64,000 nt of DNA from Raillietiella orientalis. Its lineage: Eukaryota. The translations under genes and the position numbers were made by a program. The DNA is taken from the NCBI GenBank assembly GCA_036172245.1, contig JAYWIR010000056.1, forward strand, positions 1 through 64,000, in the 5' to 3' direction. Below are positions 8,572 to 46,128 of this stretch, piece by piece; the first letter of the stretch is position 1, and the number at the start of each line of letters is the position of its first letter. Below the pieces are notes generated by a model. It worked only from the letters and a program-made list of their open reading frames with translations. It did not search any database and had not been told where the DNA came from.

Positions 8572-9692
8572 GCGTGGCAACTTCCACCCAGGCGTCGGAG
8601 GATAAAACCGCGAAAGACGCAGGAGGGGAGGAGAGATGGCAACTGGTTAAGGTGGGGAAAGAAAAAAAGAAGATTCTGGGAGAGCAAAAGTCGGAGAAAA
8701 AAACTGCCGGCAAAAAGAAAAAAGCCGCGCCGCTTTCAAAAAAACTCCGCAAGTGCTCGGTGGCATTGGAACGCTTAGCTGTTCCTTCGGAGTTCGCCCG
8801 CGGCAATGTTCAGCAAACAGCTGATGGGGTCGCGATCGAAACTAGCGTGGACGAGCTCACTCTAAGTTTAGAGGATGAGACGCGAGACTTGCGCTCCGAA
8901 AGCGAGGACGCCGCGTCCGATAAGGTCGCGGAGGAGCCCGCGGCAACGTTGGCAGGCAGCGATGACGCGTCTTTCGAGAAGGCCGCGGAGAAACTCGCGG
9001 CAACGCTTGCCGAGCACGAAACCCTGTCGCTTAAGGGCGTCCGCAGGCCGGCTCCAAAGAAAATGCCTCCCGCAGGTGAGTCCGATCGGGAGGCCGGAAA
9101 CTCATCATCCTCCGCGCAGGCATCTCTTCGAAAGTCAGGACGTAAGTCCCAAACACCCAAGAGGTGACCTCCCGTTTCGAACGAGGAGGAGAAGCCGGAA
9201 GCCGAAGGCAGCGTGGGAAACCCGAAGGGGGAACTCCCACGCTCGGAAGCCGGCGCACAGGCAACGCCTATGAAGGAAGGTGAGCAGGGTAACGAAGCCA
9301 ACCCTGCATGCGCAGAACCCGAAAAGCCCGCCCCTATGGAGGAGGGCGATCAGGTAGGCGCGACCACACCTTCGGGCGATGCGCCTGACGCGCCGACACC
9401 AAAGGAGGAGGAGGATCAGGTGCTCCACGCACCGACAGTCCGCCTCCAAGCGTCCCGCCCCAACAGGTGTCGGACGCCGCACTGCCACTTTCCCAGGATT
9501 AACACCTGGGCTCGCTTGTCGCCGTCGGATACGCGTGGCCTGTTGGAATGTCAACGGGCTGCGCGACGACGGCAACAGACGAGAAACGGCCGACACCCTG
9601 CGTGAGTTCGACCTGGCCCTGCTGCAGGAGATCCACGTGATCACCTCGGCAGACGTCCAGGAGATCGAGACGATCGCGGGGGTCGACTGTTT
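8572..9692 (+). mobile_element. Family A copy A2: ORF1 C-terminal half and APE N-terminus
   Basis: KCSVALERL..FEKAAEKLAA (ORF1); ACWNVNGLRDDG..LLQEIHV (APE); ends at GTCGACTGTTT. Confidence 0.85.
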
Positions 9693-10725
9693 GTCATCCG
9701 GGTGCGCCGGGGCGTTTATCACAAACTAACCGGGAACAAAGTTCCCGGACAAAGGGGAAAACAAGAGACGAAGGGGGTGGGATCCCCGACACGCAGGTCT
9801 GTATGCTGAAAGTCCGGAACGGGAGGGAGGGGACCACAAATACACTACTATAAAAAAAATAAAAATAAAAATATGGAGGGCAGGGGACAGGGGTCTTTGG
9901 TGAGTCCGTTCCTTCCTTTCAAAACCGGCGATGGATGCCGGCGATCTCTTTCCTTACGTCCTGTAGAAGATGGGCCCACTCGGCAGCCGAGGACAGGCTT
10001 GCGCTGGCTAATCCGGTGGGCTGACGAACGATGGCCAGCTTCTCCAACTCTCGGTGGGCCTTAGCGATGGCGCGGGTGCAACACACGGTTGCAACGACAG
10101 CACCCAAAGACAGGCCGCCTGGCGTGAAGAAGCGGCGCATCAAGTCCCTCGCGGCGTCCCCCTGGTGCAGGAGAGCTGAGGTTAGCCTCCGCCAAAGTCC
10201 TTGGAGGGCACCGCAGTCCAGGAGGAGGTTCGGAAGCGTTTCAACTTCCCGGCACCGCTTACAGTTTGGGGAGACAACTACCCCGGAAACACGGTTCGTA
10301 CGCTGGTTGGAGTGAAAACCCCAATGCACCAGCATGATGACGTCCTGCTTCCACGAAAGGAAGAACACAGAAGTGTTCAAACAGGAGGGAGGGACCACAA
10401 GTTCTTCGGGAGGCACACTCAAGTGTTCACTCCACCGAAGGAGTCCCTTCGAGATGTGGCGAGGCGTGGCGGCGTCTGCCAGCTCGCAAGTCCTCCAGCC
10501 GCCAATAGGTCGCGTTATTCCTGCGATGGTGCAGGCGACCTTCCATCTCGACGGATCGCAGCTGTCATCTCTTCCCCTGAGGGCTGACAGTCCGTCGGCG
10601 AGGGGGGTGTGGGCCAGGCCGGTCCACTTCTCCTGGCTGCTGCAGACCTCATTCACCGTGTAGTACGGGGAGAGGTGAACGCAACGGAGTTGGAGGATGG
10701 AAACATCCTGGTGCTCACGAAAGGT
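9693..10725 (-). mobile_element. Family B copy B1, 5'-truncated (ORF2 C-terminus ..IAGIHRRF and 3'UTR)
   Basis: ORF 9919-10656 with CKRC..ETLPNL; 3' terminal hairpin motif at 9693-9720. Confidence 0.85.
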
Positions 10726-10729
10726 GACG

Positions 10730-12669
10730 GGTTTATCTCGCCTGGTACCGTCGTCGCGCAGCCCGTTGACATTCCAACAGGCTGCGCGATTCCGACGGCG
10801 ACTGGCGAGCCCAAGTGTTAATCCTGGGAAGATGGCGATGCGGCGTCCACCACCTGCTGAAGCGGGACGCCAGGTGGAGGAGGAGGGTCAGGTGCCTTCA
10901 GCACCTGACCCTCCATAGGTAACGCCGCGTCGAGCGGGTCACCCACAGGTGGGGTCGCGCCTACCTGTTCGCCCTCCTCCATGTGGGCGGGCTGTTCAGG
11001 GTCGGCGCCCGCAGGGGGGACTTCACCCCCGTGTTCACCCTCCTCCATGGGGGTGGCCGGTTCGACGGTTTCCGAGCGTGGGAATTCCTCCTCCGAACTT
11101 CCCACGCTGTCGAAGTCTTCCGTCTTCCCCTCCTCGCTGGTGAAGGGAGGCGCCTCCTGGGCTTCTGGGACTTCCGTCTTGACTTCCTGGGGGGTGCCTC
11201 CGAGGAGGAGGATGTACTTCTGGCCCCCAGGTCTTACTCACCTGCCGGGGCCTTCTTCGCCTGAGCCGACGTTCGCACGGCCTTGCGCGAGGAGTTCTCA
11301 CGCTCGGCCAGCGTGGCCGCGAGCTCCTCCGCCGCCTGCGCGAACGCGGCGTCCTCGGCTTCGACCGACGCGTCACGCGGCTCACCCTCTGTATAAACAG
11401 AGGGTTCGCCGGCGCGAACCTCGGGCGCGGCATAAACGGCGAGGGGAGGCTCGTCGCCCCGGGTGGCAGCCTCGGGAACGCTGACGCGCTTCAGTGCTAC
11501 CGTGCACTCGCGGACGGTTTTTGAGAGCGGTCCGGGTTTTTTCGCCTTCCCGGCAGTCTTTTTTTCCGCCTTTTTGTCCTTTCTCTGTTGAGGCCCTTTT
11601 TAAGGCTCTTTCCTGGCCTTGACCAGCTTCCATCCCTCCTGCATTCCTGCGTCCTCTGGAGTTTTTTCCTCCGACGCCTGTTTGGTAGGAAGAGGAGATG
11701 GCGGCTGGGGCCAGCCAGTTTAACGTTGCGGTCTTTCGACCTTCTTATCTTTCTTTGCCTGCGCTTTTTTGGCAGCGGGCGGCACCGGGTTGGAGCGTTT
11801 AGGGCACACACGACGAACGTGTCCCTTAACCCCGCACAAGTGGCACACAATATTCGGGCGCCGCTTGCGCAAGTGTCCTACTGCATAGCAGTATCCACAG
11901 TAACGGAGTTTGCCCACGAACCAGAGGTCGACGGTTCCATTCGCGACCTCTAATTTGTGGGGTAAGCCACCGCCCTCTTCAACGGTGACACGCGCTGCAG
12001 CCTGGCTACCAAAAAGACCATTATAGCCTTCGAAAATCGTTGGCTTCGGCCACAACGCGTGCACTTCTGCATGCTTTCCTAACCCATTACCAACCGCCAA
12101 CCGCGTCCTGTGGCTGGTAATTCCCGTGAGATGGACCACTACAGAGCGGTCCATCCTCAGCGGCAAGATCTTGCGACCATCCACGATCAGCGGATCGGTG
12201 ATCAGGCGTTGGGCCAAGGTGATATCTTTACATACCACCTCGACCCGCTGACCGCCGCGGAGGACGGAGAGGCCGTCAAGATCTTGCTCCAGTATGTTTG
12301 CAGACTGCAGTGCCTTCGTGAAGGCACGTGCATTCTTGCCATCGAACAGATTGCCTACCTGATAGACAAGCGATGGCTTGTATCCGGAGGCCCTGTAAGC
12401 GGCTTGTTCAGCCAAAGTTGCTGCGCTAGGCGCGGCTACCATGGCGCTTTAGCTCCTCGCCTTTGGCGGCGAGGGTGATTCCGGGGCGGAAGCCCCTGAC
12501 TCTGTAGGCTGTATGGGTGGACAAGTTTCCCCCACACTCACACCTACCTTCATCGTGGTGTCCTCAGGCAAGGTTGCCATCGGACACCAACGATGTGCAC
12601 TATGCACCACACACAATAGAAACCCGCTTCCTACGACTCACTCGGGAGCGAAGAAAAACACGTCCGATC
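10730..12669 (-). mobile_element. Family A copy A3: 5'UTR, frameshifted ORF1, APE N-terminus
   Basis: 5' motif CGGACGTGTTTTT at ~12655-12667; CGYCYAVGH and CHLCGVKGHVRRVC knuckles; ACWNVNGLRDDG. Confidence 0.88.
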
Positions 12670-13418
12670 GGCGGTGGCAGGCACTTACCTTATCCCCCGC
12701 CTCAATGGGGTTGCTCAGCAGCTCGGTTGCGGAGGGTGGGAAAATCCCTCCCTCCGTTCCCACGCTGCCGGCTTCCCCCTTGGCTGCCGGTGTGTCCCCC
12801 TCCTTCTTCGTCGGGAAGCGCCTCTTCGGATTCTTGGACTTCCGTCCAGTCTTCTTCGGAGGCACCTTCGCGGAGGAGTACGCACTTCCGGCATCTGGGT
12901 CGTGGTCACCTGTCGGAGGTGCCCTGGTCGCGGCCGGCCTTCGCAAGGCCTTACGCGCGCCGTTCTCACGGTCGCCGAGTTCGGCCGCGAGCTCTTCCGC
13001 CGCCTGTTGGAAGGCGGCGTCCTCGATTGCGGCGAGCGCGTCGCTCGGTTCCCCCTCTGTTTGCACAGAGTGTTCGCCTTTTGTGATCGCGTCTTCGTCG
13101 GCAACGAGGCGGGGGATATCTCCCCCGGTGGCGGTCTCGGGGACCTCCACGCGCTCCAAAGCGACCGAACATTTGCAGAGCAACGCACTTCGTTGTCTCC
13201 TATTTGAAGGAGTTGTCGCGGTTTCCGCTGTGGGACCTTCGGTTGTCCTTAATTTTTTTCTTTTTGGCTTAGCCTTCTGCCAGCCCTCGCTCTTCTCAGC
13301 GTCGTCGGGAGTTTTCTCGACCAGCGTTTTCTGCACGGGTTCGGCCTCTGGCTGTGGGTTCAGCCTCTCGGGTGCTTCTTTAGCCTTTCCGATCGCCCCG
13401 TGCGTTTCCCCTTGGTAG
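12670..13418 (-). mobile_element. ORF1 C-terminal fragment of a related Tx1-like element
   Basis: KCSVALERV..EDAAFQQAAEELAA..RKALRRPA, homologous to the other ORF1 copies. Confidence 0.8.
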
Positions 13419-13419
13419 A

Positions 13420-13689: not shown

Positions 13690-14447
13690 CCCCCGACGCC
13701 TTGGGATAGTGGTGCCCTCGCTTTGGGTTGGCAGGAGACAGCGCTGCTTGTGCTCCATTGGGGACTTTTGAGCAGAGCACGCCCGTCTCACTGGACATTG
13801 GGGAAATTGGATGCCCATTGTACAGAGTGTGGGGAAAGGGAAACCTTCCCCCACTTACTAATCGAGTGTGTTGCCCTCCGCCTCACGTGGGATGGACTCT
13901 CGTCGGCCATAAACGGACCGGTGGGCGACCCTAAAAATATTCTTCGGCGCCTCTTGATGCAGAACTCCCTGCCAGGTACCGCGTGTGTTGCAGTTCTCTG
14001 CTGCATACGGGGAATATTGGACAAGTGGAACGCGTCAATAAGAGGCCGCAGTAGTCGGAATGCCATCCACTGGGCAGTCATCTTCATGGAGAAGGCTTCC
14101 CGTTGGCGCCGGCTGAGTAAAATTCTGCCAGCACTTGTTCGCATCCGAAACCAGAGGCAGAGGCCTCCCCTCGGCGAACCGTGATCTCTTCCCTTTCCTC
14201 CTTACCCCATAAACATTGTAGCCCAAGCGTTTTTACTTTATTTTTGTTTTTATTTTCTCTTTTTCCCGTCCCCTTTGCCAGTGGAGAAGGCCTTCCCGGC
14301 ACTCAAGTCGGAAAAAACAAGTGCATAAGAAATAGGAACAATGTGTTCTGACAGGAACACAAATACAATTAATTAACAATTGACAGCAATTAATAACTGC
14401 TAATATGTTTTTTATATAATAAAAGCCCCTGCTTACCTGGGTGAAGG
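13690..14447 (+). mobile_element. Family C copy C1, 5'-truncated, with 16-bp TSD ATTAACCCAACATCGG (13674-13689 / 14448-14463)
   Basis: ORF2 C-terminus CTECGERETFPHL..RPPLGEP; terminal AATAAAAGCCCCTG-CTTAC-CTGGGTGA; exact TSD. Confidence 0.92.
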
Positions 14448-14569
14448 ATTAACCCAACATCGGTCAAAATTTTGTCTTCAATACAGGAAGAGTTTAAATA
14501 TTGCTTCAAGCCAGAGCTTGGAGCATAACCTTTTTTAAATTTATCTATGGCTTCAGGCGAAATCGTGCG

Positions 14570-14935
14570 TTGCTTTAATTAGTCCATAACACCTTCATTT
14601 TTTTGCACAAACCAGCAGTTTGCAGCTAAATTCAGCGTCGAAAACAGTTTGTGACTTTCTTTGGTAACACTGAGGTTTTTGGGTAACTCAACACCTACAA
14701 CTGATGCTTGCCTTTCCAATGCTTCTTTAAAGCTTAGCCCTTCAGGTTGGGAGATAAACTCAAACACATCGCCATGAGCAGAGCAGCCAAAACAGTGATA
14801 CGATCCCCAAAATCGTATTACTCACAAAGAAAGACGGCGTTTTTTCATTATGAAATGGACAAAGTCCCACGAAATTATCTCCGCTTTTTGTCAGCCTGAC
14901 TTTCTTACCTACTATGTCAGATAGTAACAAGTCTA
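14570..14935 (-). pseudogene. dnaG: DNA primase N-terminal zinc-binding domain fragment
   Basis: [43 protein letters not shown]. Confidence 0.88.
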
Positions 14936-16404
14936 CAGGATTTTATAATATTTATGTAATCCATCTTACTTGTCGAGTGAGTGGTAGGATAAAAATTATA
15001 CAGAATTTTCTGCTGCCCTGGCTCGAAATTTATTTCAAGCTTCAGGGCTCCCAAAAGGTCCAAAAAAACAAAACTTCTACTAGACCATGGTCTTGTAGAC
15101 CAAGTTTTCCTGTCATTTCAACCTGCACAGATCGGGAATTCAAACAAATAGCTTCAATAGAAACAACCAAAGAAGGTAAAGGAAAAACATCAGCGAAAGA
15201 AAAAGAAGCAACCGAAGAAGTGCATGAAATTATAGAAATAAAGGTGGATGCAAAAGGAAGATATCAGATCGTCGTCGTTTCAAGTTATCTTCTCGACTTC
15301 CCATCTGGTGTTGCAAGGCCAATCCCTCTAACCAAGCAAGAGCCTGATCTTTTGCCGAAACCTCTGGCAAATTTGGTGCAGCGTGTGCAAGGATATGTTG
15401 CAAGTGAGGAAAATAGTGGGAGCAAAAGAAACACAAATGAACGAAAATAAGGAAGCAACATAGCCAGCACGGGAACCAGATGTAGCCGCTCGTCCACCTG
15501 CCCCGAGGCAAGAACCGAGCAAGGAGACGCCACTACTGATTAGAAATGTAGTGGATAATAGTATAAGAGACCAGTTGCATGACTACGATGATGACACCAG
15601 CATACAAGGCATGCCAACAGCAAAGCTGATTGATAAGCAAAATGTAAAAATTGGTGATAATACCGACGCAGAAGAAGCAAAACCAATTGACATAGCTAAA
15701 ACTTACGGAAAACCTTTTGCTGGAGCTTAACCAGCGCTTCGTTCTGTACATGTTTGAGTCCAAAGGAGGTTATAAAGGACAATACCGGTCATGAATATAA
15801 AATGTAAAAAAAAATTCTTGCATTTATGATTCATTTGTAATACATAGGTATTCCATAATTTGTAAATGGAGGGGTCTATGGATAAAAGAGCAAGCTCCAG
15901 TTCACAAGAGTCTCGTTTTCGTATAGGCACATATGATTCTGCTGCTCGGATGGCAGCTAATCGCGGGACAGGTGGTGGGGGACGGACGGTACGTGCATGG
16001 AGACCCCAGTAAGTTTGAAAAGTGTCATAACTATCCTTATGCAGGGATGAGTGTCACTAAAGCTGAGAGGGCTCAAAGTAGTTGTCAGAAAAATCAATAA
16101 CTATTTTAATAGGGGGGAGTTATGACTGTATATAATTTAAATTCCGTCTTGGAGCTGGTTAATGCATTTACCATTAATAAGTATGGCTCTAAAGTCAACA
16201 CTAAGTTTCGTTGTCGAAGGCGGCAATATCACTGTCAAGTTTAACTGTGATATTGACTCTGCAAATAGGTACTCATAACAGATGGCAAGAGACTTAGTAA
16301 GAGAATGTTTTTCTGATGAGGATGCAGCTAGTAATATTTTTGATCTTGAGCCTTTTCCATTTCATTTCCATAAGAGATGGTTAAAGTATGACTAGAGGAC
16401 AGGA

Positions 16405-16788
16405 ATGACTAAGCTTACAGTTCCCATAGACCCTGGGGTAATCTTTAATCTCAAAGTACACTTTGCCGAAGAGTGTAGAATTAATGTAGAAAGACAAATG
16501 AGTAAGGAAATTTACAAAGATGCTCAGTGTAATATTAGTAAAAAACTTATTGAAGAATTTTTAAACGACAATATACAACGATTAGCAATAGGCCCATCAT
16601 CTCCTTATATAAAATGCCTGTTTTTCAATGACCCAGGTACACAAGAGCATTTCAAACAAGTGCTTCAGGCGAAAATGCAAAAGCACAGATATGATTATTT
16701 AGATTTCCATCACATTGACGGCAATAATATGTACTTTAAAGATGTTGAAAATGTTGCCTTCATCAAAAGTTGTAACAGAACTTTTTAA
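16405..16788 (+). CDS. Wolbachia-like hypothetical protein (fragment)
   Basis: 127-aa AT-rich ORF in the nuwt; no recognised motif. Confidence 0.35.
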   Translation: MTKLTVPIDPGVIFNLKVHFAEECRINVERQMSKEIYKDAQCNISKKLIEEFLNDNIQRLAIGPSSPYIKCLFFNDPGTQEHFKQVLQAKMQKHRYDYLDFHHIDGNNMYFKDVENVAFIKSCNRTF

Positions 16789-16959
16789 AAAGAGGATAGG
16801 GTATCATCTTCGCCTTCCGAGCAGTGATAATTGAAAAGTTAGAAACATTAAAGACGTTAATCTTTCGCTTAGCTGGAATATCGATTTGTGGGTACTATCG
16901 TGATAAGTTTTATTGATGAAGATGGAATAAGTATTGGAGAGCGCTTATGCAACATCACA

Positions 16960-17417
16960 TGATATTTTCTTGTTCAGTAATGGAGAATTTATTACACGGC
17001 AAAACAGATGCCGAATGTGAGGAAGTGAGAAGAGCAGCCATCAGTGCTTATGCAATGGAATTCATTGACAAGCTGCCCGATAAGTTTGACACATTTGTAG
17101 GGGAAAGAGGATTGAAGCTTTTCGAAGGACAAAAACAGGGTATTATAATAGCGAGAACCATACTCAAAAATCCTCAAGCCTTAGTGCTGGATGAGGCAAC
17201 CTCTGCCCTTGGTTGCAAAAGTGGAGACTTCGTACAAAAAGCACTGAGCAAAGTAATGCAAAACAGAACAACGATCGTAATCACACACAGGCCATCAACC
17301 GCACTCAAAACTGACAAAATTATAGGGGTTAATCACGGAGGAATAGAAGAAGTGGGAACTCATGAATCTCTAATAAGCAAAGATGGACTATATGCAAAAT
17401 TGGTGCGCTATGCATGA
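16960..17417 (+). pseudogene. ABC transporter (MsbA/ABCB type) nucleotide-binding domain C-terminal fragment
   Basis: VGERGLKLFEGQKQ (degenerate signature), LVLDEATSAL (Walker B), IVITHR, GTHESL. Confidence 0.88.
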
Positions 17418-17436
17418 TGCAAATTAGACTCTAATA

Positions 17437-18246
17437 ATGATGAATTCAGATGAAGGTGCTCAATCAACTTCTGAAACTTACAAATTAGGGACACCTTATA
17501 CCAGAAAGACACGTACATATAACTATATACATTTGACCAGAGCATTGGAGATTCTGAGTGACCCATCCTGGTCACATACAAATAAGGAGCTTTTTTTGGA
17601 TACAAGTGCTGAAGAAACCAAGAGATTTGTAAGTTCAGTTCAAAAAGGACTTGCTGAATATACAGGTAATGATTCTGTAGATGTGAGATTGAGAGGAAAA
17701 GAAGATAAATCATTTACTGCATGGGTATCGTTAAAAGACGGCAAAGGTGAGTTAAAATTTGATAGCTCATTTCCTGGTTAGGCCTTAAAGGATAGTAATC
17801 CAAAGATTGAAGCTTTCACATTGGTATCTCCAGAAGATAAAAGGTCGGTGCGTGTTTCACAAAATGACGATGGCGTAAGGCTTTATCCAATACTCAATGA
17901 GTCAATGAGTTCAATTCAATTTCACTGGAAAGTGGATGATAGAGATTGCAGTATTACTTTAAATATTAGTGGAGATGGTAACGTATTCTGTACTGATTTA
18001 AGTGGCAATACAAGCCTTGAGGACTTGAAGAAAAACAAAGCTGTAAAAATAAAAGTTGGTTGTTACGAGAAGAAGGAGATAGATGAATATAATGACATGA
18101 CTCTAGCAAAATTGGCCTCATTGGCTTCAAACTTACAAGAAATTGAAAGAGAAGTAGTAACGATCAATCCATCAAGGGCAAGCGCACAGGATGTTAGTGA
18201 ATCGCAGCATCCTCAAAATAGTAGGCAGGAATTGCTAGCTCATTAA
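17437..18246 (+). pseudogene. Wolbachia-like hypothetical protein, internal stop at 17781
   Basis: Two in-frame ORFs (17437-17781, 17821-18246) followed by a terminator-like hairpin. Confidence 0.5.
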
Positions 18247-18251
18247 TCATT

Positions 18252-18294
18252 ACTACACATACACTGTTGCATGTGGCAACGGTGTATGTATAGT
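18252..18294 (+). terminator. Long inverted repeat, bacterial terminator-like
   Basis: ACTACACATACACTGTTGC / GCAACGGTGTATGTATAGT just after the stop at 18246. Confidence 0.55.
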
Positions 18295-18505
18295 GACGAG
18301 TCAACCAAAACTCCAATACTAAGTCACAGCTTCTTACATAATCCCAAAACTAAGCAGAAACATAAACAAAGCTTCCCTGGCCGAAATTCTAAACGTAGCT
18401 AGGATGAGTAAAGAATTAGCAAAAGCTGTTCTTAAACACTTGAAGGATAAAAAGTAAACTGTATCCATTCAGGGGCGCGTGGTGGACATTGAAGCAAAAG
18501 TGGTG

Positions 18506-18780
18506 TTATGTAAGTAGCTGGTTTTGTACAAATAAACTTGCTTGAGAAAAGTCGATCTGTCCTGTACATCCATAAAGTAGTGACATTCCGTACAACATGA
18601 CGCAGGAAGATAACGCACTGAGCGTAAAATATTTCACCCCTGCTTCGCATGAATAAACTGAATCTTTATTAAAGCTTGCAAGAACATATAAAGGTATGCT
18701 CATCAATTCAAAAGCTAAATAAAAAGAAATTAAATTATTTGCTGGAACCAGAGTAATCATGCCAAACAGCGCAAAAAGAA
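18506..18780 (-). pseudogene. nuoN: NADH-quinone oxidoreductase subunit N fragment
   Basis: ANNLISFYLAFELMSIPLYVLASF..SCEAGVKYFTLSALSS..LYG. Confidence 0.88.
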
Positions 18781-18984
18781 TCGGAGGCCCTCTTCGGAGT
18801 CCTTGTGGTTAAGGCTTCCGCGTGTGGGACCCCGGGTCGCGGGTTCGAATACTTCGGAAGAAACTCTGTCGCCACTGCGTCGTCGGGTTCCGAGTTTCTC
18901 CTGCAATATGGCGCTGGCTGGCCGAGACATTCGGGCGTGGCCCCGGTGGTGGATTAAGCCGGAGGCCCCGCCCGAAAAAACGTA

Positions 18985-19160
18985 AATCCTCACTAGACGC
19001 AGTGGAATGTGCAGAAGGGAAGAGGGGTAAAGTCGTTGCTGAAGCTGCTCTAATTAAGAGGAATAGTGAAACAAAATTACCTTTTGCTGTTATATCTTTG
19101 CTTGAGCTTAGCATTAAAAACTACAGCGAGGCGGAGCTTCCTGAAAAATCGAGAAAACTG
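18985..19160 (+). pseudogene. pyrE: Orotate phosphoribosyltransferase C-terminal fragment
   Basis: KSSLDAVECAEGKRGKVVAEAALIKR..LPFAVISLLELSIKNY. Confidence 0.6.
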
Positions 19161-19309
19161 CCCGTAACCAAGCCAGGGAGCCGGGAATATCTAAGTGATT
19201 ATGCAAAGTAATCCTATTTTCAATGTCATCCAAGTAGCATAGAAACAGAGCAAAAAACTACTTGACAACCTCCGCCAGCCCCCTCACAATAGAGTGGTTA
19301 CTACAGTTC

Positions 19310-19575
19310 CACGCCCCGAAAATACATCTTCTATTGGCATTGAAAATGGCAAATCCACAGGCTTCGGCTGATCAGGCACATACTCATCTAATGCTTTCAT
19401 CAATTTTATCCATTGATTTTTTTCCATATTCACTATTTTCGTCACCTTCCAGCACTTTCAATGCCGAACCCACAACATCTGGTACTTCATCTCCAGGAAA
19501 GCCATACTCTGTTGACAATTCTCTGACTTCCATCTCCACCAAACCAATCGTATCGTGATCAGCAGCATCAGCAGA
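19310..19575 (-). pseudogene. tuf: Elongation factor Tu fragment
   Basis: [26 protein letters not shown], then [19 protein letters not shown] after a frameshift. Confidence 0.92.
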
Positions 19576-20116
19576 GAACATGAAGCTTTTCTGTATGTAG
19601 ATGAAGAATATGCAACAGGTATTATTGGTCACAATGGGTATGGATTATCTACCAGTATTAATCTTCAGGAAATTCCACATTTAATCCCAGGAACTTTTAG
19701 TAAAGCCCTAGGAATTTGGTAGCTAATACTCAACTTAAAGGAAGAAGGAAATTCTTCCTTTAAGATCTTCCTCCTTGTCTCCCACCGATATACTAATTTT
19801 TTTATGGGGTTATTCACGGCATTATGGATAACCCAGTTGATAACCTGAATGCATAAGATTCTGTCACTTGAGAGTTTTTGAGCATTAATCTGGAGGCTCA
19901 TATTCTCCATAATGTACAGTATGTAATTTCTAATACTAAGGAAACCATTCCCGAACCTTTTAGACAGCTAAACTATTTCTTCTCTTAAATAAGAATAAGT
20001 TGCCTATACAGAAAAAGATTGGCAATATTTCAAGCTTTCCAAGCAGCATTAAAAACGACAGAGATAGTTTCACTCCACCGCTCAAGGAGGGATAATTACC
20101 CGAAGGACCAATTAAG

Positions 20117-20265: not shown

Positions 20266-20267
20266 TT

Positions 20268-22088: not shown

Positions 22089-22089
22089 T

Positions 22090-25860: not shown

Positions 25861-25879
25861 GTTTTCTAGCACGGTTTGA

Positions 25880-37000: not shown

Positions 37001-37076
37001 ATCCCACATCGTGGCGAGAACAATTTCCAACACTACATGAACTTCTACACGGCCGAGCTACGATCAAACACGTCTT
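31031..37076 (-). mobile_element. NeSL/Utopia-like non-LTR retrotransposon with restriction-like endonuclease, near full length, degenerate, no TSD
   Basis: N-terminal C2H2 fingers (CDIPNC..GLRNHMRWH), RT (FRPIA, QKGF, QG, YADD), PDQG and CRFIHCARLN, RLE (HNVV..DIF..IIDV..FEN..KY..GELGSW, SRDIY); A8 tail at 31031. Confidence 0.85.
31200..35706 (-). pseudogene. Single ZnF-RT-RLE ORF of the NeSL/Utopia-like element, multiple frameshifts
   Basis: ORF pieces 35104-35706, 34204-34605, 33554-33823, 32905-33660, 31921-32472, 31110-31517. Confidence 0.8.
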
Positions 37077-38909
37077 GCCGACAGAATGACGCTGGTCAAC
37101 CTGCTGCGCTCTTGTCCAGGTACGCCGTCCTTGGCAACCTATGCCGCTGACCTGCTTCTCCTGTTACCCATGACCACCCCGGCGTCCAGTCTCGAGGATT
37201 TCTTCGAGCTGATTCGCCGTGGAGCGGGCATGAGCGTAAACCGGAGCAAGAGCGCGGTCGTTCCAGGGGGGCAGTCCGACTGGATCCGCCTGAGCTTCCC
37301 GACCTCCACGTCTTCAAAGTACTCGCGCGTCCCTCTGGGAAACATCAGTCCAGTGGAAGCGTGGTCGGAATGCCTTCGGAAGGCTACGAGTGCTTTAAGA
37401 CCGTTCCATCTTGGCAGGTTCCTCCTGTCGGAGCGGGCCACCGTATGGAGCACCTTCCTTGCCCCCTCTTACGCCTCCTGCTTTTTATTTCTCCGCCCCC
37501 CTACTCGGACGAGCTCCAGGTGCAAAGTCTGTTGAGGAACGCTCTGTGGGGACCTGCGAGCTCCAGGATCCGCCTCAAAGACTTGGCGGCTCCACGTCGG
37601 GATGCCGGATTGGGCGTCCTGACGCTGGAGAGAATCGAGCTGCAGGTGCAGCTCCAGATGTTGGCCCTGTGCGCCAGCCTTTCGTCCACTCCGTGGTGCG
37701 CTCCCGCGCGCCTGCTGCTGCGGTGCTGCACTGGCAGCGATGGACTTCTCTCGCTGCTGCCAAACACGGAGCGCGCCACGAGAAGCTTCGGCTTCCCGTT
37801 GAAACCACTGTACCGGCTCCTGGTAGCCCACGCATGGATCTCCTGCCGCCCAACGAACTTTGACGCATGGCGGCAGGAACCTTTGTATGCCTGGACAAGG
37901 CAAACGATGTTTCCCTTTTGGAACTCCGTCAACCTGTGTCCGTACTTTACGGTAGAGAAGGTTCTAAATGACCATGAGAAGTGGAGTCGCCTGGACGGCA
38001 CGCCCCTCGCCAACGCGCTGTTAGCCATCGGGGCAAGTGATGACAGCTGCCTACCGGTGAGATGGGAGGTCGCCTGCACCATCGCTGCAGAAACCCCACC
38101 CATGGGCGGATGGAGGACTAGCGAGCTGGCAGACGTCCCACGCCTCGCCACATCTCGAAGGGACTCCTTCGGTGTAACGAACTTTAGAATGTGCCCCCCG
38201 AAGAACTTGTGGTCCCTCCCTCCTGCTTGAACACTTTTGTGTTTCCCCTTTCTTGGAAGCAGAACGTCATCATGCTGGTGTAATGGAATTTCCACTCCAA
38301 CCAGCGGACGAACCGTGTTACCGAGGGAATTGTCTCCCCGAATTACGAAAGGTGAGGAAAGGTGGAAACGCTACCGCACCTGCCCTTGGACTGCGGTGCC
38401 CACCAAGGACTGTGGTGGAGGCTGGCCTCAGCTCTCCTGCTCCAAGGGGACACTGCAAGGAATCTGATGGGCTGTTTCTTCACGCCAGGCGGCTTGTCCT
38501 TTGGTGCTGTTCTTGCAACGGTCTGTTGCACTCGCGCCATCGACAAGGCCTACCGAGACTTGGAGAACCTGACCATTCTTCGTCAACTCACTGGAATAGC
38601 TGACCTGAACATGACGTCGGCTTCCGAGTGGGTCCATCTAACAGAGGGCGTTAGGAGCGGGATCGCCGGCATCCACCGCCGGTTTTGAAGAAAAGGAACG
38701 GCTCAAACCAAAGATCCCTGTCCCCTAGCCTCCCGATATCTTCATTTCTATTTTTTTTATGTGTATTCGTGGTCTTCTCCTTCCCGTTGCGGAGTTTCGC
38801 CTTACCGACCTGCGTGTCGGGATCCCTCCCTTCGTTTTTTCTGTGTCCTTTGTCCGGGTACCCTGTTCCCGGATAGTTCAGCAACAAACGCCCCGGCGCA
38901 CCGTGTGAG

Positions 38910-39737
38910 AAACAGCCGGTTCCACGCGATCGTTTCGATCTCCTAGACGTCTGCTGCGGCGATCACGTGGATTTCCTGCAGCAGGGCCAGGTCAAACTCG
39001 CGCAGGGTGTCGAGTGTATCCCGTCTGTTACCGTCGTCGCGCGACCCGTTGACATTCGGACAGGCCACGCGGTTCCGACGGCGACAGGCGAGCACAGGTG
39101 TTATTCCTGGGAAATCGGCGGTGCGGCGTCCGCCACCTGTTGGGGCGTGACGCTTGGAGGGGGAGGTGCATCAAACACCTGCTCTACCTCCTCCATGGAT
39201 GCCGGCGTGTCCGGTTCCTCTCTTGAAGGTGGTGTCGCGCCTACCTGGTTACCCTCCTCCATGGGAGCGGGTTTTTCAGGGTCGGTGCACGCGAGGGGGG
39301 CTTTGCTCCCCTGCTCAACCTCCTCCATGAGAACCGCCCGCTCGCCGGCTCTCGAGCGTGGCAGATCCCTCTCTAGGGTTCATTTGCAGGGGTCTTCCTC
39401 ACCGGAGCCGGCCTTTGTACGGCCTTGCGTGAGTTCTCACGCTGGGTCAGCGTGGTCGCGAGCTCCTCCGCCGCCTTTGCAAAGGCGCCTCCTGGCTTCG
39501 ACCTACGGCGCGGCTACCATTGTGCTCCACGTCCTCGCCGGCGGCGAGAATGATCCAGGAGAAGTTGACTCTGTGTCTGTAGGCTGCGGGGGTGGACTTG
39601 CCTCCCCCACACATACATCCATTGCGGTGTCCTCTGGCAACGCCGCCTTCGGACACCTACGATGTGCACACACAAAACACACAAGAAAAACTCTCCTACT
39701 ACTCGCTGGCGGAGCGCAGAAAAAACACGTCCGCTCA
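38910..39737 (-). mobile_element. Family A copy A4: 5'UTR, internally deleted ORF1, APE N-terminus
   Basis: 5' GAGCGGACGTGTTTTT at 39721-39736; APE VNG..REFDLALLQEIHV. Confidence 0.8.
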
Positions 39738-39756
39738 CGAAGAGCGGGATTTCGGG

Positions 39757-40648
39757 TTACCACCCGGTCACGCCGGGGAGTTTATTTAAACTCTACTAAG
39801 ACGTGGTACAGGCTCCACTAACAGTCAGCACTACACCGGACCTCCAGGGACGCCGGGACGCAGCCCGGCGTAACTCTCCTCCACAGTGGAGGGGGATGGG
39901 GGACACAACAAAAAGAAAAATAAAATATAAGGGAAACAAAGAAAGTTGGGAGGGACTGGAAGGGATCACTGGCCACCGGGAGAAGAAAGGAAGCCCTTCA
40001 GGTCCATCTGCATTCTTCCCAGCTGAGGCCATTCCGTTGCTCTCACTAGAAAGCGAGCAGCTTATGGGATGACTTCCCTGTCGTTAGCATCATCTTCTTT
40101 GTCGCGGACATCGCTCAAAGCCGCCACGATGCCAAGGATGCAGCAAAGTGCTGCAAGGACTGCGGCAGGCTGCAAGGCATTCCGCACGAAAAGAAGCCGT
40201 AAAACGTCTCTGGGCTCGCTGCCCACCGGGAGACCGAGGGTTATCCCAAAACGTTCCCATAGGGGTCGGAGGGTAGCACAATCAACAATAAGGTGGGGGA
40301 GCGAGTCCCGCTTTCCACACCTGGCACACTGAGGATTCACAGCTCCTCTCGTCCATTGGAGGCGGCGTGAGTTGCAGGGTAGACCTCAATGCAACAGCAG
40401 CAGCGCCGACTCTTGCCACTTAAGGGGCAGAATCCTTGATCCATTTAATACCAGGGGCCACTTCAGCTCATCCATCGGGACGGCGAGCAGCTCGCGTCAT
40501 CTTGTTAATCTACGCTCGGGGTGTTGGCGTCCGCTAGCTCTCCCATGGTCCAACCGCTCATTTTCTTCTCTCTGTCTGTGATTCAACAGGAGACTTGCCA
40601 CTTCGGCGTCCGGTCGCTGGAGAGGGTTCTCCGTAGGAAGGGCATTGA
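39757..40648 (-). mobile_element. Family A copy A5, 5'-truncated and internally deleted
   Basis: CARCGKRDSLPHLIVDC; 3'UTR with AATAAA and terminal hairpin. Confidence 0.82.
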
Positions 40649-42982
40649 GGAAGGGATTTGGGGTTGTCACCCGGGTATGCCCTGGGCGTTTCTTGAAAAA
40701 ACTCTACATGAACGTGGTACGAGGCCCCACTGACGGCCACACAACACCGGACCTGCCGGGACGCCGGGACGCAGCCCGGCGTGACGCTCCTCGGCAGTGA
40801 AGGGGGATAGGGATCAAAACAAAAAGAAAAATAAAGATAAGTTAAACAAAAAAAGAGTTTGGAGGGAGGGGAAGGGATCACAATCCACTGGGAGGAGGGC
40901 CCATCCTTCGCAGGATGCCCTCCAGGTCCATCTTCATGCTTCCCAGATGGGGCCATCTCGCAGCTCTCCGCATGGAGCAGACCGCATACGGGATGACATC
41001 CCTCGCGTGTGGACCCACTCCTTCGTTGTTGGCGTCGCTCCATGCTGCCACGATGCCCTGGATGCAGCAGAGGGCTGCGAGGGCTGCGGCGGGATGTAGG
41101 GCGTCCCGCACGAAGAGGGGCCGAAGAACGTCTCTGGGCGCGCTGCCCATTGGGAGCCCGAGGGTCGTCCCGAACCGTTCCCACAGGGGTCGGAGGGCAG
41201 CACAGTCAACAAGTAGGTGGGGGAGCGATTTCCGCTCTTCACATCCGGCACACTCAGGCCTTACACTTCCCCGCGTCCAGTGGAAGCGGCGCGCGTTGCA
41301 GGGTGGACCCCAGTGCAACAGCAGCAGCGCCGACTCTTGCCACTTCAGGGGGAGAAGCCTGGATCCAATTAATATTGGGGGCCACTTCAGTCCATCCGTC
41401 GGGATGCCAAGCAGCTCGCCCCTTCTACGAAGTCCACGCGGGAGGGCACTCGGGGTCGTGGCATCTGCCAGTTCTCCCATGGTCCAGCCGCTCATCGTCT
41501 TTTCCTTGCCTGCGATTCGGCAGGAGACTTGCCACTTTGGCGTACGGCCGCTGGTTAAAGCCCTTGGTAGGAAGGGCAGGGTCGAAGCTAGAGGGGTAGT
41601 CTCCGCCCACGTGCTCCTGGCGGGACACTCCAGAGTAGTCCGCAGTGTGCAGCAGGCGTTGGGGCCGAATCGCAGGCGGTTCCAGTCCGGGGAAGTCTGG
41701 AGGTTCAGCTTGGCCCACTTGGCAACGGATTCCTCCAGTCAGGCGGAGGAGTTGGCGGGGCTGCATACCGTCCAGCCGTTGTCTCTCACCAGGGCTTCCA
41801 TGCGCCCAAGGAAAAGGCCGCATCTTCTGTCCTTCCTGCCAGAGCAGAGAAGGTACGACGCGAGTCCTTGCGTCCTGGACACACGGCAGGCGAGGGTGCG
41901 GGCCGGAACGCACCAAGGGGTGCTCCATGACTTCGGTGCGATGGCGAGGGTGCGCCATCGCAGCTGTATGTCCAGGCGCTCCAGCGTCAGGAGGCCGAGA
42001 CCGCCGTCCCGACGAGGAGCGCATAAGTCATCTAGAGGCACACGTGGCCTCCCGCTGCCCCAGAGGGCGATGCGGAGTAGGTCCTTTGTCCTCTTTTTAA
42101 TGTCACGGGGGACGGGGCAAACAAAAAGCAGGGGGCGGAGGATGGGAGCCGCGAACGGAGCCGTTCCACACCGCGGCCCGTTCAGGCAGAAGGAACTTGC
42201 CTTCCAGGAACTGGCCGATTGCCAACTCTACCTTTTGGAGACGACCTGACCAGGCTTCTGCGAGGCAGAAGTCCCTTAACGGGACACCCAGGTACTTCAG
42301 GTACCTGGCCGCGGGGATCCCCAAGCGGATCCAGCCAGGCCGTCCGACCTACGTCGCACCCACCGGTACGACCGACGACTTCGCCTTGTTTACCCGAAGT
42401 CCAGTCCCACGACTTAGCAGGTCGAAGAAATCCTCGACTGCGGCTGCCGGGGCGGACATGGGCAACATGAGCAGAAGGTCGTCGGCGTATGCTGCTACGG
42501 CGGGCATGCCGGGGCACGAGCTGGGCAGGGCAGCCAAAGTCACCCTGTACGCTCTGAGCACCAACTCAAAGTAGGTGCTAAAGAGCAGGGGACTGAGGCT
42601 ATCGCCCTGCCGTATGCCCCGCCGCACCGGCACGCCGTACACCTGTTAGCTGGAGAAAGTGATGTTAATTATGGCGTTGCGCCAGCAGGAGCGCAGGAAG
42701 GAGAGAAGGGAGGGTGGGAAGCCCATGCGACCCAGGAGCTCCAACAGTAGCTGCTGGTCAACGCAGTCGAACGCCTTATGGAGATCGACCGCGATCGCTA
42801 GGGCCCCCTTCCCAGCCCGGGTGTCCATTCCCAGCCCAGCTGGCGGCCCCAAAGTGGGGTTGCCATTCTTACCGCCAGTGTCATTTAGGCAGCGCTGCAC
42901 ATGGAACCATGTGCTCGCGAAGAACAGGTTGCCATCCATACTTCGCCCGGGAACAGCGTATGTCTGCTCCGGGCTAATTAGA

Positions 42983-44514
42983 CCGAGTGCTTTAAGACCA
43001 TTCCACCATGGCAGGTTCGTCCTGCCGGAGCGGGCCACGATATGGAACACCTTCGTTGCCCCCCGCTTGCGCCCCCTGCTTTTTGTTTGCCCGCCCCCCT
43101 ACTCGGCCAAGCTCCAGGCGCACAGCCTGTTGAGGAACGCTCTGTGGGGACCAGCGAGGTCCAGGATACGCCTCAAAGACTTGGCGGCTCCGCGTCGGGA
43201 TGCTGGCTTAGGCATCCTGACGCTGGAGAGAATCGAGCTGCAGGTGCAGCTTCGAATGTTGGCCCTGTGCGTTAACCTTTGGTCCACTCCGTGGTGCGCT
43301 CCCGCGCGCCTGCTTCTGCGGCGCTGCACAGGCAGCGATGGACTTCTGTCGCTGCGGCCGCACACGGAGCGCGCCACGAGAAGCTTCGGTTTCTCCTTGA
43401 AACCGCTGTACCGGCTCCTGGAAGCCCAGGAATGGATGTCCTGCCGCCCAACGAACTTTCAAGCCTGGCGGCAGGAACCGTTGCATGGCTGGGCAAAGCA
43501 CCAAGATGTTTCCCTCCTGGAACTTCGTTGCGCTCACCTCTCCCCGTACTGCACGGTGGACGAGGTGTGCAACAGCCAGGAGAAGTGGACCCGCCTGGCC
43601 GTCACGCCGCTTGCCGACGCACTGTCAGCCCTCAGGGCAAGAGATGACAGCCGCGAAACGGCGAGATGGGAGGTCGCCTGCACCATTGCAGGAACAACAC
43701 GACCTATTGGCGGCTGCAGGACTTGCGAGCTGGCGGATGCCGCCACGCCTCGCCACATACCGAAGGGACTCCTTCGGTGGAGCGAACACTTGAGTGTGCC
43801 CCCCGAAGAACTTGTGGTCCCTCCCTCGTGTTTGAACACTTCTGTGTTCCCCCTTTCGTGGAAGCAGGACGTGATTATGCTGGTGCATTGGGGTTTTCAC
43901 TCCAACCAGCGCACGAACCTTGTTTCCGGGGGAGTTGTCTCCTTAAACTGTAAGCGGTGCGGGGAAGTGGAAACGCTCCCGCACCTGCTCTTGGACTGCG
44001 GTGCCCTCCTAGGACTGTGGCGGAGGCTGGCCTCAGCTCTCCTGCACCAGGGGGACACCGCGAGGGATTTGATGCGCCGCTTCTTCACGCCAGGCGGCCT
44101 GTCCTTAGGTGCTGTTGTTGCAACCGTGTGTTGCATTCGCGCCATCGACAAGGCCCACCGACAACTGGAGAAGATGGCCATCCTTCGTCAGCCTACCGGC
44201 TTAGCCAGCGCCAGCATGTCGTCGGCAGCCGATTGGGGCATCTTCCAGAGAGCGTGAGGAAGGAGATCGCCGGCATCCATCGCCGGTTCTGAAAGGAAGG
44301 AACGGCAGAACCAAAGACCCCTGTCCCCTGCCCTCCATATCTTTATTTTTATTTTTTTCTACGGTGTATTTGTGGTCCCCTCCCTCCCGTTCCGGACTTT
44401 CGGCATACCGACGTGCGTGTCGGGGATCCCACCCCCTTCGTTACTCTATGTCCTTTGTCCGGGAACTTTGTTCCCGGATAGTTTGTAATAAACGCCCCGG
44501 CGCACCCGGGTGAT
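42983..44514 (+). mobile_element. Family B copy B3, 5'-truncated
   Basis: LRPFHHGRF..CKRCGEVETLPHL..IAGIHRRF; terminal AATAAACGCCCCGG-CGCAC-CCGGGTGA. Confidence 0.88.
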
Positions 44515-46128
44515 AAACAGTCGACCCCCCGCGATCGTCTGGATCTCCTGGACGTCTGGACAGGAGGAGGAGGGACAGGTGCCTCGAGCACCTGGTCCCC
44601 CCTCCTCCATCGGTGACGGCGCGTCGGGCGAGTGACCCTCAGGTGGGGTCGCGCCTACCTGTTGGCCCTCCTCCATAGGGGTGGGCTGTTCAGGGTCCGC
44701 GACGGCAAGGGGGACTTCACCCCCCTGCTCACCCTCCTCCATGGGAGTGTCCGACTCGAGGACTTCCGCGCGTGGGAGTTCCCCCTCCGGGATTCCCACG
44801 CTGCCGTCGGTTTCCTGCTTCTCCTCCTCGCTCGTGGAGGGGAGGCGCCTCCTCGGCTTTTGGGACTTGCGTCCCGTCTTCCGAGGGGGTGCCTCCGACG
44901 AGGAGGATGCACTTCCGGCCCCCAGGTCGCACTCACCTGCGGGGGCCTTCTTTGCCGGAGCCGGCCTTCGCACGGCCTTGCGTGAGGGGTTCTCACGCTC
45001 GGCCAGCGTGGCCGCGAGCTCCTCCGCCGCCTGAGCGAACGCGGCGTCCTCGCTTTCGGCGCGCGCTTCGCGCGGCTCACCCTCTGTGCAAACAGAGGGT
45101 TCGCCGTCGCGAACCTCGGGCGCGGCGGAAACGGCGTGGGGAGGCTCGTCGCCCCGGGTGGCAGCCTCGGGAACGGCAATCCGTTCGAGTGCCACCGTGC
45201 ACTCGCGAAGAGTTTTCGAGCGCGGACCGGGTTTTTTCGGTTTCGCGCTCTTTTCTCTGTTCGCTCTCGCGGGTTCCACGGGGGGAACTTTTTTCTCTTT
45301 TCTGGCCTTTAATAGCTTCCATCCTTCTTCCTCTCCCGCGTCTTCAGCGGGTTTTTCCTCCGACGCCTGGGTGGGAGGAACAGGAGATGGCGGCTGGGGC
45401 CGGCCAGTTTCGCGATAAGGTCTTTCGACCTTTTTTCCTTGTTTTGCCTGTGCCTTTTTGGCAGCAGGTGGCACCGGGATGGGGCGTTTGGGGCACACAC
45501 GACGAACGTGTCCCTTAACCCCGCACAAGTGGCACTCGATATTCGGGCACCGCTTGCGCAAGTGCCCTACTGCATCGCAGTAGCCACAATAGCGGGGTTT
45601 CCCCACGTACCAGAGGTCGACGGATTCCTTTGCGACCTCCAGTTTGTGGGGCAAGCCACTACCCTCATTAACCGTTACACGCGCTGCAGCCTGGCCTCCG
45701 AAATGGCTATTAAAGCCTTCGAAAATGGTAGGCTTTGGCCACAACGCGTGTATCTCACCGTATTTGCTTAATTCATTACTCACCGCAGATCGCGTCATGC
45801 GGTTCGTAATGCCGATTAGATGGACCACTACGAAGCGGTCCATGCTAACCGGCAGGATCTTACGGCCATCCACATTCAGCGGGGTGTTAATGAGGCGCTG
45901 TGCTAAGGCTTCGTCTTTGCAGACGACTACGCGCTGCTCCCCGCTGAGTACGGAGAGGCCGTCAAGATCCTCCTCTCGTACAGGGAAATCCTGCAGTGCC
46001 CTACTAAAGGCTCGGGCGGTGCGACCATCAAACAGGGATCCTACCTTATAAACCAGAGATGGTTTATATCCGGAGGCCCTGTAGGCCGCTTGCTCTGCCA
46101 AGGTTTCCGCGCCGAGCGCGGAAACCAT
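44446..46128 (-). CDS. Family A ORF1p (two CCHC knuckles), C-terminus fused by deletion to an APE remnant and antisense B3 tail
   Basis: CGYCDAVGHLRKRC, CHLCGVKGHVRRVC; ends ..DVQEIQTIAGGRLF|ITRVRRGV. Confidence 0.8.
   Translation of the reverse strand: MVSALGAETLAEQAAYRASGYKPSLVYKVGSLFDGRTARAFSRALQDFPVREEDLDGLSVLSGEQRVVVCKDEALAQRLINTPLNVDGRKILPVSMDRFVVVHLIGITNRMTRSAVSNELSKYGEIHALWPKPTIFEGFNSHFGGQAAARVTVNEGSGLPHKLEVAKESVDLWYVGKPRYCGYCDAVGHLRKRCPNIECHLCGVKGHVRRVCPKRPIPVPPAAKKAQAKQGKKVERPYRETGRPQPPSPVPPTQASEEKPAEDAGEEEGWKLLKARKEKKVPPVEPARANREKSAKPKKPGPRSKTLRECTVALERIAVPEAATRGDEPPHAVSAAPEVRDGEPSVCTEGEPREARAESEDAAFAQAAEELAATLAERENPSRKAVRRPAPAKKAPAGECDLGAGSASSSSEAPPRKTGRKSQKPRRRLPSTSEEEKQETDGSVGIPEGELPRAEVLESDTPMEEGEQGGEVPLAVADPEQPTPMEEGQQVGATPPEGHSPDAPSPMEEGGPGARGTCPSSSCPDVQEIQTIAGGRLFITRVRRGVYYKLSGNKVPGQRT

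Follow-up and report, generated by a model that had tools for sequence, protein, structure and literature searches.

Can a retrotransposon come to use the endonuclease gene of another retrotransposon as its insertion site? This question is raised by a 64 kb window (positions 1–64000 of contig JAYWIR010000056.1, assembly GCA_036172245.1, listed under Raillietiella orientalis), in which the 3′ ends of three members of one long interspersed nuclear element (LINE) family, here called B, all adjoin, at one and the same nucleotide, the antisense strand of the apurinic-type endonuclease (APE) gene of a second family, A. A preliminary description of the window had placed these junctions at 9692/9693, 38909/38910 and 44514/44515, and all three are confirmed by the sequence. 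In copy 1 the B element lies on the − strand and the junction reads ...CCCGGATGAC AAA/CAGTCGACCCC, whereas in copies 2 and 3 B lies on the + strand and the junctions read ...CCGTGTGAG AAA/CAGCCGG and ...CCCGGGTGAT AAA/CAGTCGACCCC respectively. The break point, which we call site P, is ambiguous by 0–3 nt, as the AAA can be assigned either to the B terminus or to a TTT codon of A. A three-way alignment of the copies is collinear on both sides of the junction, with a gap of ~200 bp in the A part of copy 3 (44558/44563).

On the A side, copy 3 translates as ..QEIQTIAGGRLF, which corresponds to the N-terminal part of Exo_endo_phos by Pfam (9358–9726, +, in the A region of copy 1) and by tblastn against the APE open reading frame (ORF) of element C, a separate family with an intact APE ORF at 2648–4198 (−). 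The protein motif ..LLQEIHVI..QEIxTIAGGRLF is that of an APE N-terminus. Numbered on the element C ORF, site P lies at approximately APE codon 92, ~50 residues into the domain, and tblastn finds the remainder of the APE beside none of the three copies, as had been noted earlier. Element C itself carries an unoccupied homologous site at 3915–3960 (−), which reads ..GGTGGGCGGCTGCTG/TGG... (protein ..EIERISGGRLL/WRCG), whereas the A site has GGGGGTCGACTGTTT.

Three copies of the B-type terminal word AAACGCCCCGGCGCACC are present in the window, each followed by the same A sequence; a tblastn search of the window with the B3 protein returns, at or above 70% identity, no copy beyond these three; and every A-family copy in the window that reaches site P (3/3) is occupied. 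Three out of three at one nucleotide cannot be chance, whether or not the events were independent. From three B copies in this one window, we regard site-specific insertion of B into the endonuclease gene of A as the best explanation, and one towards which the balance of probability tips modestly.

The B terminus and the probable A/X family

Comparison with a set of related copies (X1, X2, X2′ and X3) indicates that the B 3′ end at the junction is the true terminus of the element. These X copies comprise a reverse transcriptase (RT), a C-terminal domain and a 3′ untranslated region (UTR) laid out as in B, namely the stop codon, CCCTGCCCTCC, a T-rich run, ~150 nt and an end block. In X the end block is AYAAACGCCCCGG(G)CGYACCCGGGTGAYAA, without poly(A) and with unrelated flanking sequence directly after it, and B ends in the same hairpin plus GTGAYAA(A), again without poly(A). 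Of 10 aligned LINE ends, 8 retain the 5-bp hairpin at the terminus, without covariation, so the structure is backed by conservation alone. At ~40% identity in the C-terminal domain, B and X are sister families, and A and X are probably the 5′ and 3′ halves of a single family, A/X. We also considered a HAL1-like ‘A-short’ element ending in an A-rich run, but rejected it because the T-rich run and the next ~150 nt are the 3′ UTR shared with X.

At 46368 and 39760 the 3′ ends of X (..GGGTGAYAA) meet the A 5′ terminus, CCCCAAMTCCC.., of which the same ~17 nt also follow X2 at 40662, and once, at 8581, an X 3′ end is joined to a 5′-truncated A. The clusters thus hold four head-to-tail X/A or X/X junctions, along with nested antisense insertions, and these head-to-tail A/X arrays suggest either self-targeting of the element at its own end or terminal addition.

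As to the class of these elements, element C has matches to Exo_endo_phos (E 3e-16) and RVT_1 on the same strand in Pfam, and the closest match of its APE ORF is to human L1 ORF2p (E 1e-29) and, among PDB matches, to L1-EN, whereas the R1Bm and TRAS1 endonuclease chains gave no match to this ORF at E≤0.01. Such similarities support the assignment of the elements to the L1 group of APE-type non-long-terminal-repeat retrotransposons, but no narrower placement such as the Tx1 clade. The zf-CCHC and zf-CCHC_2 matches in the A part of copy 3 and in a further A-type stretch, A′, fall below the Pfam cut-off (E 3e-3 to 3e-4); the CCHC columns are nevertheless invariant in an alignment with P0001, a protein that carries PF00098.

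Structure of the three copies

In copy 1, B1 (9693–10714, −) comprises the C-terminal region of ORF2 from approximately residue 283 of the B3 frame, the 3′ UTR and the terminal hairpin, with its 3′ end at 9693, and its ORF is open over all 247 aligned codons. It adjoins A1 (8581–9692, +), which is 5′-truncated at approximately ORF1 residue 272 and runs to site P. Directly before A1 lies the 3′ end of X1 (5819–8581, +), a 5′-truncated A/X element with the C-terminal part of the APE, the RT, the C-terminal domain and a 3′ UTR with hairpin. On its other side B1 is joined in the same sense to A′ (10714–12672, −), which consists of an A-type 5′ UTR, ORF1 (CCHC) and the APE to approximately residue 60. 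The joint at 10700–10730 (..CGTGAGCACCAG/GATGTTTCC..) shows a few bases of microhomology and passes from approximately residue 60 of the APE to approximately residue 283 in the C-terminal domain. With 73% protein identity to A3 and a ratio of non-synonymous to synonymous divergence (dN/dS) of 0.35 against it, A′ is a typical A sequence. The A′–B1 joint is either a template-switch chimera, for which the RT left B RNA and continued on A RNA, or it belongs to an internally deleted element of a B family with A-type 5′ halves. If B elements do carry A-type 5′ halves, B would be striking its own kind no less than a rival.

Copy 2 contains B2 in two pieces. The 5′ piece (30804–31024, +) covers the RT from the KAF(D) motif onward and the 3′ piece (37071–38909, +) the C-terminal part of the RT, the C-terminal domain, the 3′ UTR and the hairpin, with the 3′ end at 38909 and with two frameshifts and three stops; RT residue numbering is continuous over the ~6 kb foreign insertion (~31025–37070) that parts them. 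The 5′ ends of B2, at the RT motif KAF.., and of D, a different ORF1 fragment, meet head-to-head. At the junction, A2 (38910–39760, −) spans the sequence between the A 5′ terminus and site P, except for a large deletion inside ORF1, and its 5′ terminus is adjoined by the 3′ end of X2′ (39760–40644, −), a 5′-truncated or internally deleted 3′ part of A/X.

In copy 3, B3 (42984–44514, +) has 423 open codons, the 3′ UTR and the hairpin, with its 3′ end at 44514. Its partner A3 (44515–46368, −) runs from the A 5′ terminus (CCCCAACTCCC...) through ORF1 to site P, and the 3′ end of X3 (46371–47930, −), a 5′-truncated 3′ part of A/X, adjoins the A3 5′ terminus head-to-tail. The 5′ side of B3 adjoins X2 (40663–43002, −), which carries the A/X element from its RT (approximately residue 26 in the X1 frame) through to the 3′ end. 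On the − strand A3 (5′ terminus to P), the antisense B3 and X2 (RT residue ~26 to 3′ end) are collinear, and copy 3 reads as a single A/X element carrying an antisense B3, with ~1.1 kb of the target deleted.

The different 5′ extents of B given in the preliminary description are borne out, the limits lying at 10714 in B1, 30804 in B2 and 42984 in B3, and the three 5′ flanks differ as well. In addition, A1 is 5′-truncated, whereas A2 and A3 extend to the 5′ terminus. Two further origins of this arrangement were rejected: L1-type twin priming, because constant ends joined in the middle represent the opposite geometry, and a long 3′ transduction of A plus X by B, because the A part of copies 2 and 3 stops exactly at the natural 5′ terminus and is followed by an X 3′ end.

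Across the junction of copy 3 runs a 589-residue frame (44449–46215, −), which passes from ORF1 of A3 over the 200 bp deletion and the junction into the antisense B 3′ UTR (..GGRLFITRVRRGVYYKLSGNKVPGQRT). It is probably a chance in-frame read-through, and gene-calling programs could list the frame as a protein.

Selection and divergence among the copies

The junction may have been formed three times, or it may have been formed once, when an ancient B insertion gave rise to a composite (A 5′ UTR–ORF1 ... antisense B ... X 3′ end) that was then multiplied by unequal crossing-over or segmental duplication, or as a trans-mobilized non-autonomous element in the A sense, with later deletions producing the unlike B 5′ limits. 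Within such a composite B would be antisense or dead, and should drift neutrally. Instead, the B pairs display dN/dS values of 0.29 (B1–B3), 0.41 (B2–B3) and 0.43 (B1–B2), and the synonymous changes exceed those of neutral simulations matched for mutation spectrum and CpG context, with 39 observed against 21.4±3.6 expected and 80 against 56.2±6.0, values that none of 2000 simulations reached. The excess is specific to the frame, as the wrong-frame control gave dN/dS values of 1.03 and 1.51. An artefact of CpG or of GC content at third codon positions behind the low ratios was rejected on the basis of the matched simulations together with the wrong-frame controls.

A per-branch test on the three-copy B alignment (242 codons) found 14 synonymous changes out of 26 on the B3 branch, where 7.9±2.3 were expected (P=0.007), and 15 out of 37 on the B1 branch, where 10.0±2.6 were expected (P=0.04). 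Both frames, of 423 codons in B3 and 247 in B1, are free of stops and frameshifts. The X copies with unlike truncation points, which are plainly separate insertions, have dN/dS values of 0.30–0.47, the same range as in B. Purifying selection on a mobile element operates only through rounds of retrotransposition, so at least B1 and B3 would be separate products of active B lineages, and the pattern of substitutions favours the view that the B copies descend from separately active lineages and are not duplicates of a dead composite.

The divergence of the parts points in the same direction. Between copies 2 and 3 the synonymous divergence (dS) rises from 0.32 in B through 0.51 in A to 0.59 in X, and between copies 1 and 2 it is 0.415 in B and 0.24 in A. 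The parts of one copy pair thus appear to be unequal in age, which favours independence and is at odds with a single formation. Two structural features also stand against a composite formed once: B2 reaches further 5′ than B3, so that copy 2 is not derived from a composite of the copy 3 type, and, read in the A sense, copy 1 is not followed by an X-type 3′ end.

Several observations nevertheless weigh against independent, site-specific insertion. The B2 branch is near neutral (36 synonymous out of 100 changes, expected 30.4±4.3, P=0.11) and carries three stops, so that selection is clear only in the B1 and B3 lineages and over the whole B2–B3 path. Between copies 1 and 3, dS is 0.32 for X and 0.24 for B, a difference that is not significant. 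The three A parts are star-like, with distances of 0.23–0.28 over 222 columns, and the longest branch, in A as in B, is that of copy 2; with three taxa, such trees cannot exclude co-inheritance, and post-insertion decay would lengthen the copy 2 branch under any model. The three-copy A tree, one side of the comparison of separate B and A trees that the preliminary description had proposed, is uninformative. At the copy 3 junction, 44 bp of A (44515–44563) match copy 1 at 42 of 44 positions, whereas the rest of A3 is ~75% alike after the ~200 bp gap; the stretch could be a short co-mobilized flank, a conversion tract, a sign of shared history or chance. Copy 1 has as its 5′ flank an A-type 5′ half that shares the sense of B1, and it is not a simple insertion in A1. 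What the window holds of B is the C-terminal part of the RT and the C-terminal domain only, and the endonuclease domain of B does not lie within it. No unoccupied A-family site was seen in the window, and neither was any target-site duplication at the three copies, all of which lack the target downstream of P; in copy 3 alone does the same element resume, ~1.1 kb further on. Finally, the 3′ ends of three other LINEs in the window, G, H and C, also adjoin antisense LINE coding sequence with the downstream target missing, and a general, site-independent mechanism may contribute to what we see in B.

A number of these points are what a single formation would give. The star-like A parts with branch proportions like those of B and the full occupancy of the A copies, with no empty site seen, are in keeping with it, as is the collinearity of the three copies on both sides of the junction, which in copies 2 and 3 continues past the A 5′ terminus into X. 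Since its ORF1 is open and it has both a 5′ UTR and an X-type 3′ end, the copy 3 composite could be mobilizable, and the 5′ truncation of A1 beside an X 3′ end is the expected outcome of retrotransposition of such a composite. Set against the strong frame-specific synonymous excess and the open frames of B1 and B3, we judge a junction formed once and then propagated to be unlikely, although it is a reading to be taken seriously; were it correct, the locus would be an ordinary decayed repeat nest.

Other LINE ends in the window

The three other ends lie at ~49315 (−), where G meets the ..FPMKWQQS.. motif in the C-terminal domain of F, at ~56865 (+), where H meets a 17-residue RT fragment ending KAFD, and at ~318 (−), where element C meets approximately APE residue 294. 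Together with B1–B3, this means that all six non-X LINE 3′ ends in the clusters lie on antisense LINE coding sequence. G, H and C are at unlike sites, C and H despite a DNA likeness of 76%, and LINE-in-LINE junctions in antisense are therefore a common feature here that arises without site specificity. Recurrence at the same nucleotide is found in B alone among these ends, and the 6/6 pattern therefore lowers the uniqueness of the orientation, but not that of the recurrence. The flanks of B and G both begin with CAG and hold GTCGR..CTG on the target sense strand, a resemblance that may be chance.

The six ends bring into play an explanation that needs no sequence-specific nick, in which sense-strand 3′-OH ends of LINEs (broken ends, ends resembling those of chromosomes, or nascent second strands that switch template) prime other LINE RNAs, and site P is a hot spot of breakage, pausing or switching. 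Besides the shared orientation and the missing downstream target of all six, this would accommodate the X ends that meet 5′ ends head-to-tail in the manner of terminal-addition arrays, the template switching evident in the A′–B1 fusion, and the resumption of the copy 3 element downstream, as a detour followed by a return would give. A precedent is offered by Zepp, which heals new chromosome ends in Chlorella, according to an entry in the reference list of PMC3446292. However, G, H and C each lie at a position of their own, whereas B lies three times at the same nucleotide. Complementarity between the A end and the B RNA end amounts to 0–3 nt (TTT/AAA), which leaves unexplained why one site among many TTT should be used, and nothing was found that marks P as a pause or break site. 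We regard priming of this non-specific kind as quite unlikely to account for the three B junctions.

The matching 44 bp stretch bears on a further possibility. In R1 and R2, downstream target sequence guides initiation, and in a comparable way read-through transcripts from B masters resident at P might carry an antisense A flank, anneal to other A copies and guide priming there. The B end has no poly(A) signal, so read-through is likely, and the 42/44 match between copies 3 and 1, followed by a much less similar A3, is of the kind that such a flank would leave. This match is weak evidence, given that it falls in a conserved APE motif, where its chance probability is ~0.03 (a rough binomial estimate at 85% background identity). 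The flank runs on without a break in copies 1 and 2, and a nick at P would still be needed. Guidance by RNA–DNA homology is in our opinion very improbable.

Proposed mode of insertion

Under site-specific insertion, B would be an L1-group APE-type LINE that uses target-primed reverse transcription to enter a single defined site. A nick in the sense strand of the A/X endonuclease gene, after ..GGTCGACTG(TTT) at approximately APE codon 92, would expose a 3′-OH that primes cDNA synthesis on the 3′ terminus of the B RNA (hairpin plus GUGAYAAA, without poly(A)), and B would come to lie antisense to A with a precise 3′ junction. The nick would presumably be made by the endonuclease of B itself, and the preference would be expected to hold genome-wide. 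The 5′ junction would be imprecise, with 5′ truncation, template switching (A′–B1) and loss of the downstream target; in copy 3 ~1.1 kb would have been lost in this way, the A/X element resuming at RT residue ~26. Each hit would leave A/X with ~50 residues of its endonuclease domain and enlarge a LINE-only cluster of the Zepp kind. The preliminary description spoke of inactivation of the target, and descriptively this is true, as the APE is cut after those ~50 residues.

Its broader proposal, that B targets the endonuclease gene of a sibling LINE, is sustained in part. A separate B family, a genuine terminus, selection between the copies, discordant divergence of the parts and the architecture of copy 3 all argue for it, whereas A may be B's own kind of 5′ half and not a competitor, as B1 is joined in sense to a 5′ half of the A type. 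We put forward tentatively, and at somewhat short of even confidence, the stronger view of B as a ‘hyperparasitic’ LINE, whose endonuclease would have evolved single-site specificity for a word of ~10–15 nt in the endonuclease gene of a sibling LINE, on the antisense strand. Each insertion would then both gain a safe harbour and decapitate the ORF2 of a competitor and, together with head-to-tail self-targeting by A/X, build LINE-only clusters of the Zepp kind, possibly centromeric ones.

If this is true, B would be the first LINE known to have the enzyme gene of another LINE as its dedicated target, it would show that APE specificity is tunable to a rival element, and retrotransposon families would be seen, in a concrete case, to interfere directly with one another. 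It would also offer a mechanism by which GC-rich, LINE-only clusters of the Zepp kind are built and genes kept out of them, some of those in algae coinciding with centromeres, and a natural APE with a long, defined recognition site to study.

Comparison with known systems

Target-specific APE-type LINEs are placed in the Tx1 and R1 clades, with transposons among their targets and with rDNA, snRNA, tRNA, microsatellites and telomeres as known target kinds (PMC4640811). The nearest precedent is Tx1L, which targets the DNA transposon Tx1D in Xenopus laevis (Christensen et al. 2000, as cited in PMC6719617). Like B, Tx1L is an APE-type LINE with a defined site inside another transposable element and a precise 3′ junction; B differs in that its target is a retrotransposon of the same group, that the site lies inside endonuclease coding sequence in the antisense orientation, and that downstream target is lost with every hit. 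R1/R2 and the Tx1-clade LINEs share with B a 3′ precision of one nucleotide, variable 5′ junctions and a multicopy ‘safe’ target, but the target there is a multicopy host gene or repeat, whereas that of B is the enzyme gene of a rival mobile element.

Zepp and ZeppL are L1-clade LINEs that form clusters in green algae (PMC3446292, PMC8226300). In these algae, as here, the clusters are GC-rich and LINE-only within a lower-GC genome, and they contain nested or tandem 5′-truncated copies that arise by insertion into existing copies, which the A/X arrays resemble. Zepp is described as targeting its own copies and building tandem 3′-end arrays. In contrast, for one family on one nucleotide of another family's APE gene, in antisense, we found no report, and more generally narrow word searches of the open-access literature, which are not proof of absence, found none of a LINE dedicated to the endonuclease gene of another LINE. 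A second difference lies at the 3′ end, where Zepp carries a poly(A) tail and the elements here end without poly(A) in a hairpin plus GTGAYAA.

In L1, insertion is accompanied by target deletions, 5′ inversions (twin priming) and template-switch chimaeras. Loss of target DNA at the 5′ junction and chimaeric 5′ parts, as in A′–B1, are likewise seen here. However, these by-products of L1 are sporadic and at random sites, whereas the B 3′ junction recurs at one nucleotide, and in contrast with twin priming the geometry of B is that of a tail joined to an internal site. Against this background, a single nucleotide in another family's endonuclease gene, used in antisense, would be the new feature of B.

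Sequence searches and the remainder of the window

Metagenome scans with the B3 protein and with the ORF1 alignment found no relative, a search of genome contigs returned only one spurious Bacteroides match, a search of viral contigs found nothing, and B3 had no match among longer proteins. A search against Rfam gave no match anywhere in the window, which rules out a known RNA gene as the target. A protein search with the A3 junction region gave one protein, P0001, an ORF1 relative of 49% identity that stops short of the junction, and the ESM Atlas returned eukaryotic RT clusters only, without clade information. In one DNA sequencing run 9% of the window words were present and 267 short contigs could be placed at 80% likeness, 182 of them being less than 90% alike. 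Of 276 pieces the listing covers 8 and of 203 loose ends 6, and among those listed a loose end with four records, at 44558, continues as undeleted antisense A, which shows that further A-like copies exist and is uninformative on B.

The window is eukaryotic DNA. Its LINE nests lie at 1–14 kb and 37–49 kb (0.52–0.62 GC), with a smaller LINE element at ~54.6–56.9 kb, and the nests flank on both sides a host-gene stretch at 14–30 kb (0.36–0.45 GC). Just upstream of A′, the first nest also holds a further ORF1 fragment, A″ (12689–13390, −). Within the host-gene stretch, Pfam identifies fragments of an ABC transporter (ABC_tran, 16920–17414), an MlaE permease (20096–20485) and an α/β-hydrolase (Abhydrolase_2, 21125–21670), together with a gyrase A C-terminal region (28380–29036, −) and an MMR_HSR1 GTPase (29218–29622, −). 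The gene fragments at 14800–29700 are interrupted by introns, and the gene set suggests a plastid-bearing eukaryote. Copies of a further LINE family, E, lie at 13690–14451 (+), 26901–27534 (−) and 21933–22088 (−); they are ~89% similar and end in ..CTGGGTGAAGGATTA.., and, as they lie in or beside the genic AT-rich stretch and outside the clusters, the LINEs here are not all cluster-confined.

The ~6 kb element that interrupts the RT of B2 (31025–37070, −) is AT-richer, at ~0.46 GC, with strong GC skew, and closes at the 3′ end in a short run of A. It encodes an N-terminal C2H2 zinc finger (34207–34662) and an RT (32908–33687), the latter matching R2 proteins (E 5e-17) slightly better than L1 ORF2p (E 3e-13), and it may be an R2-group LINE and another antisense insertion in a LINE coding region.

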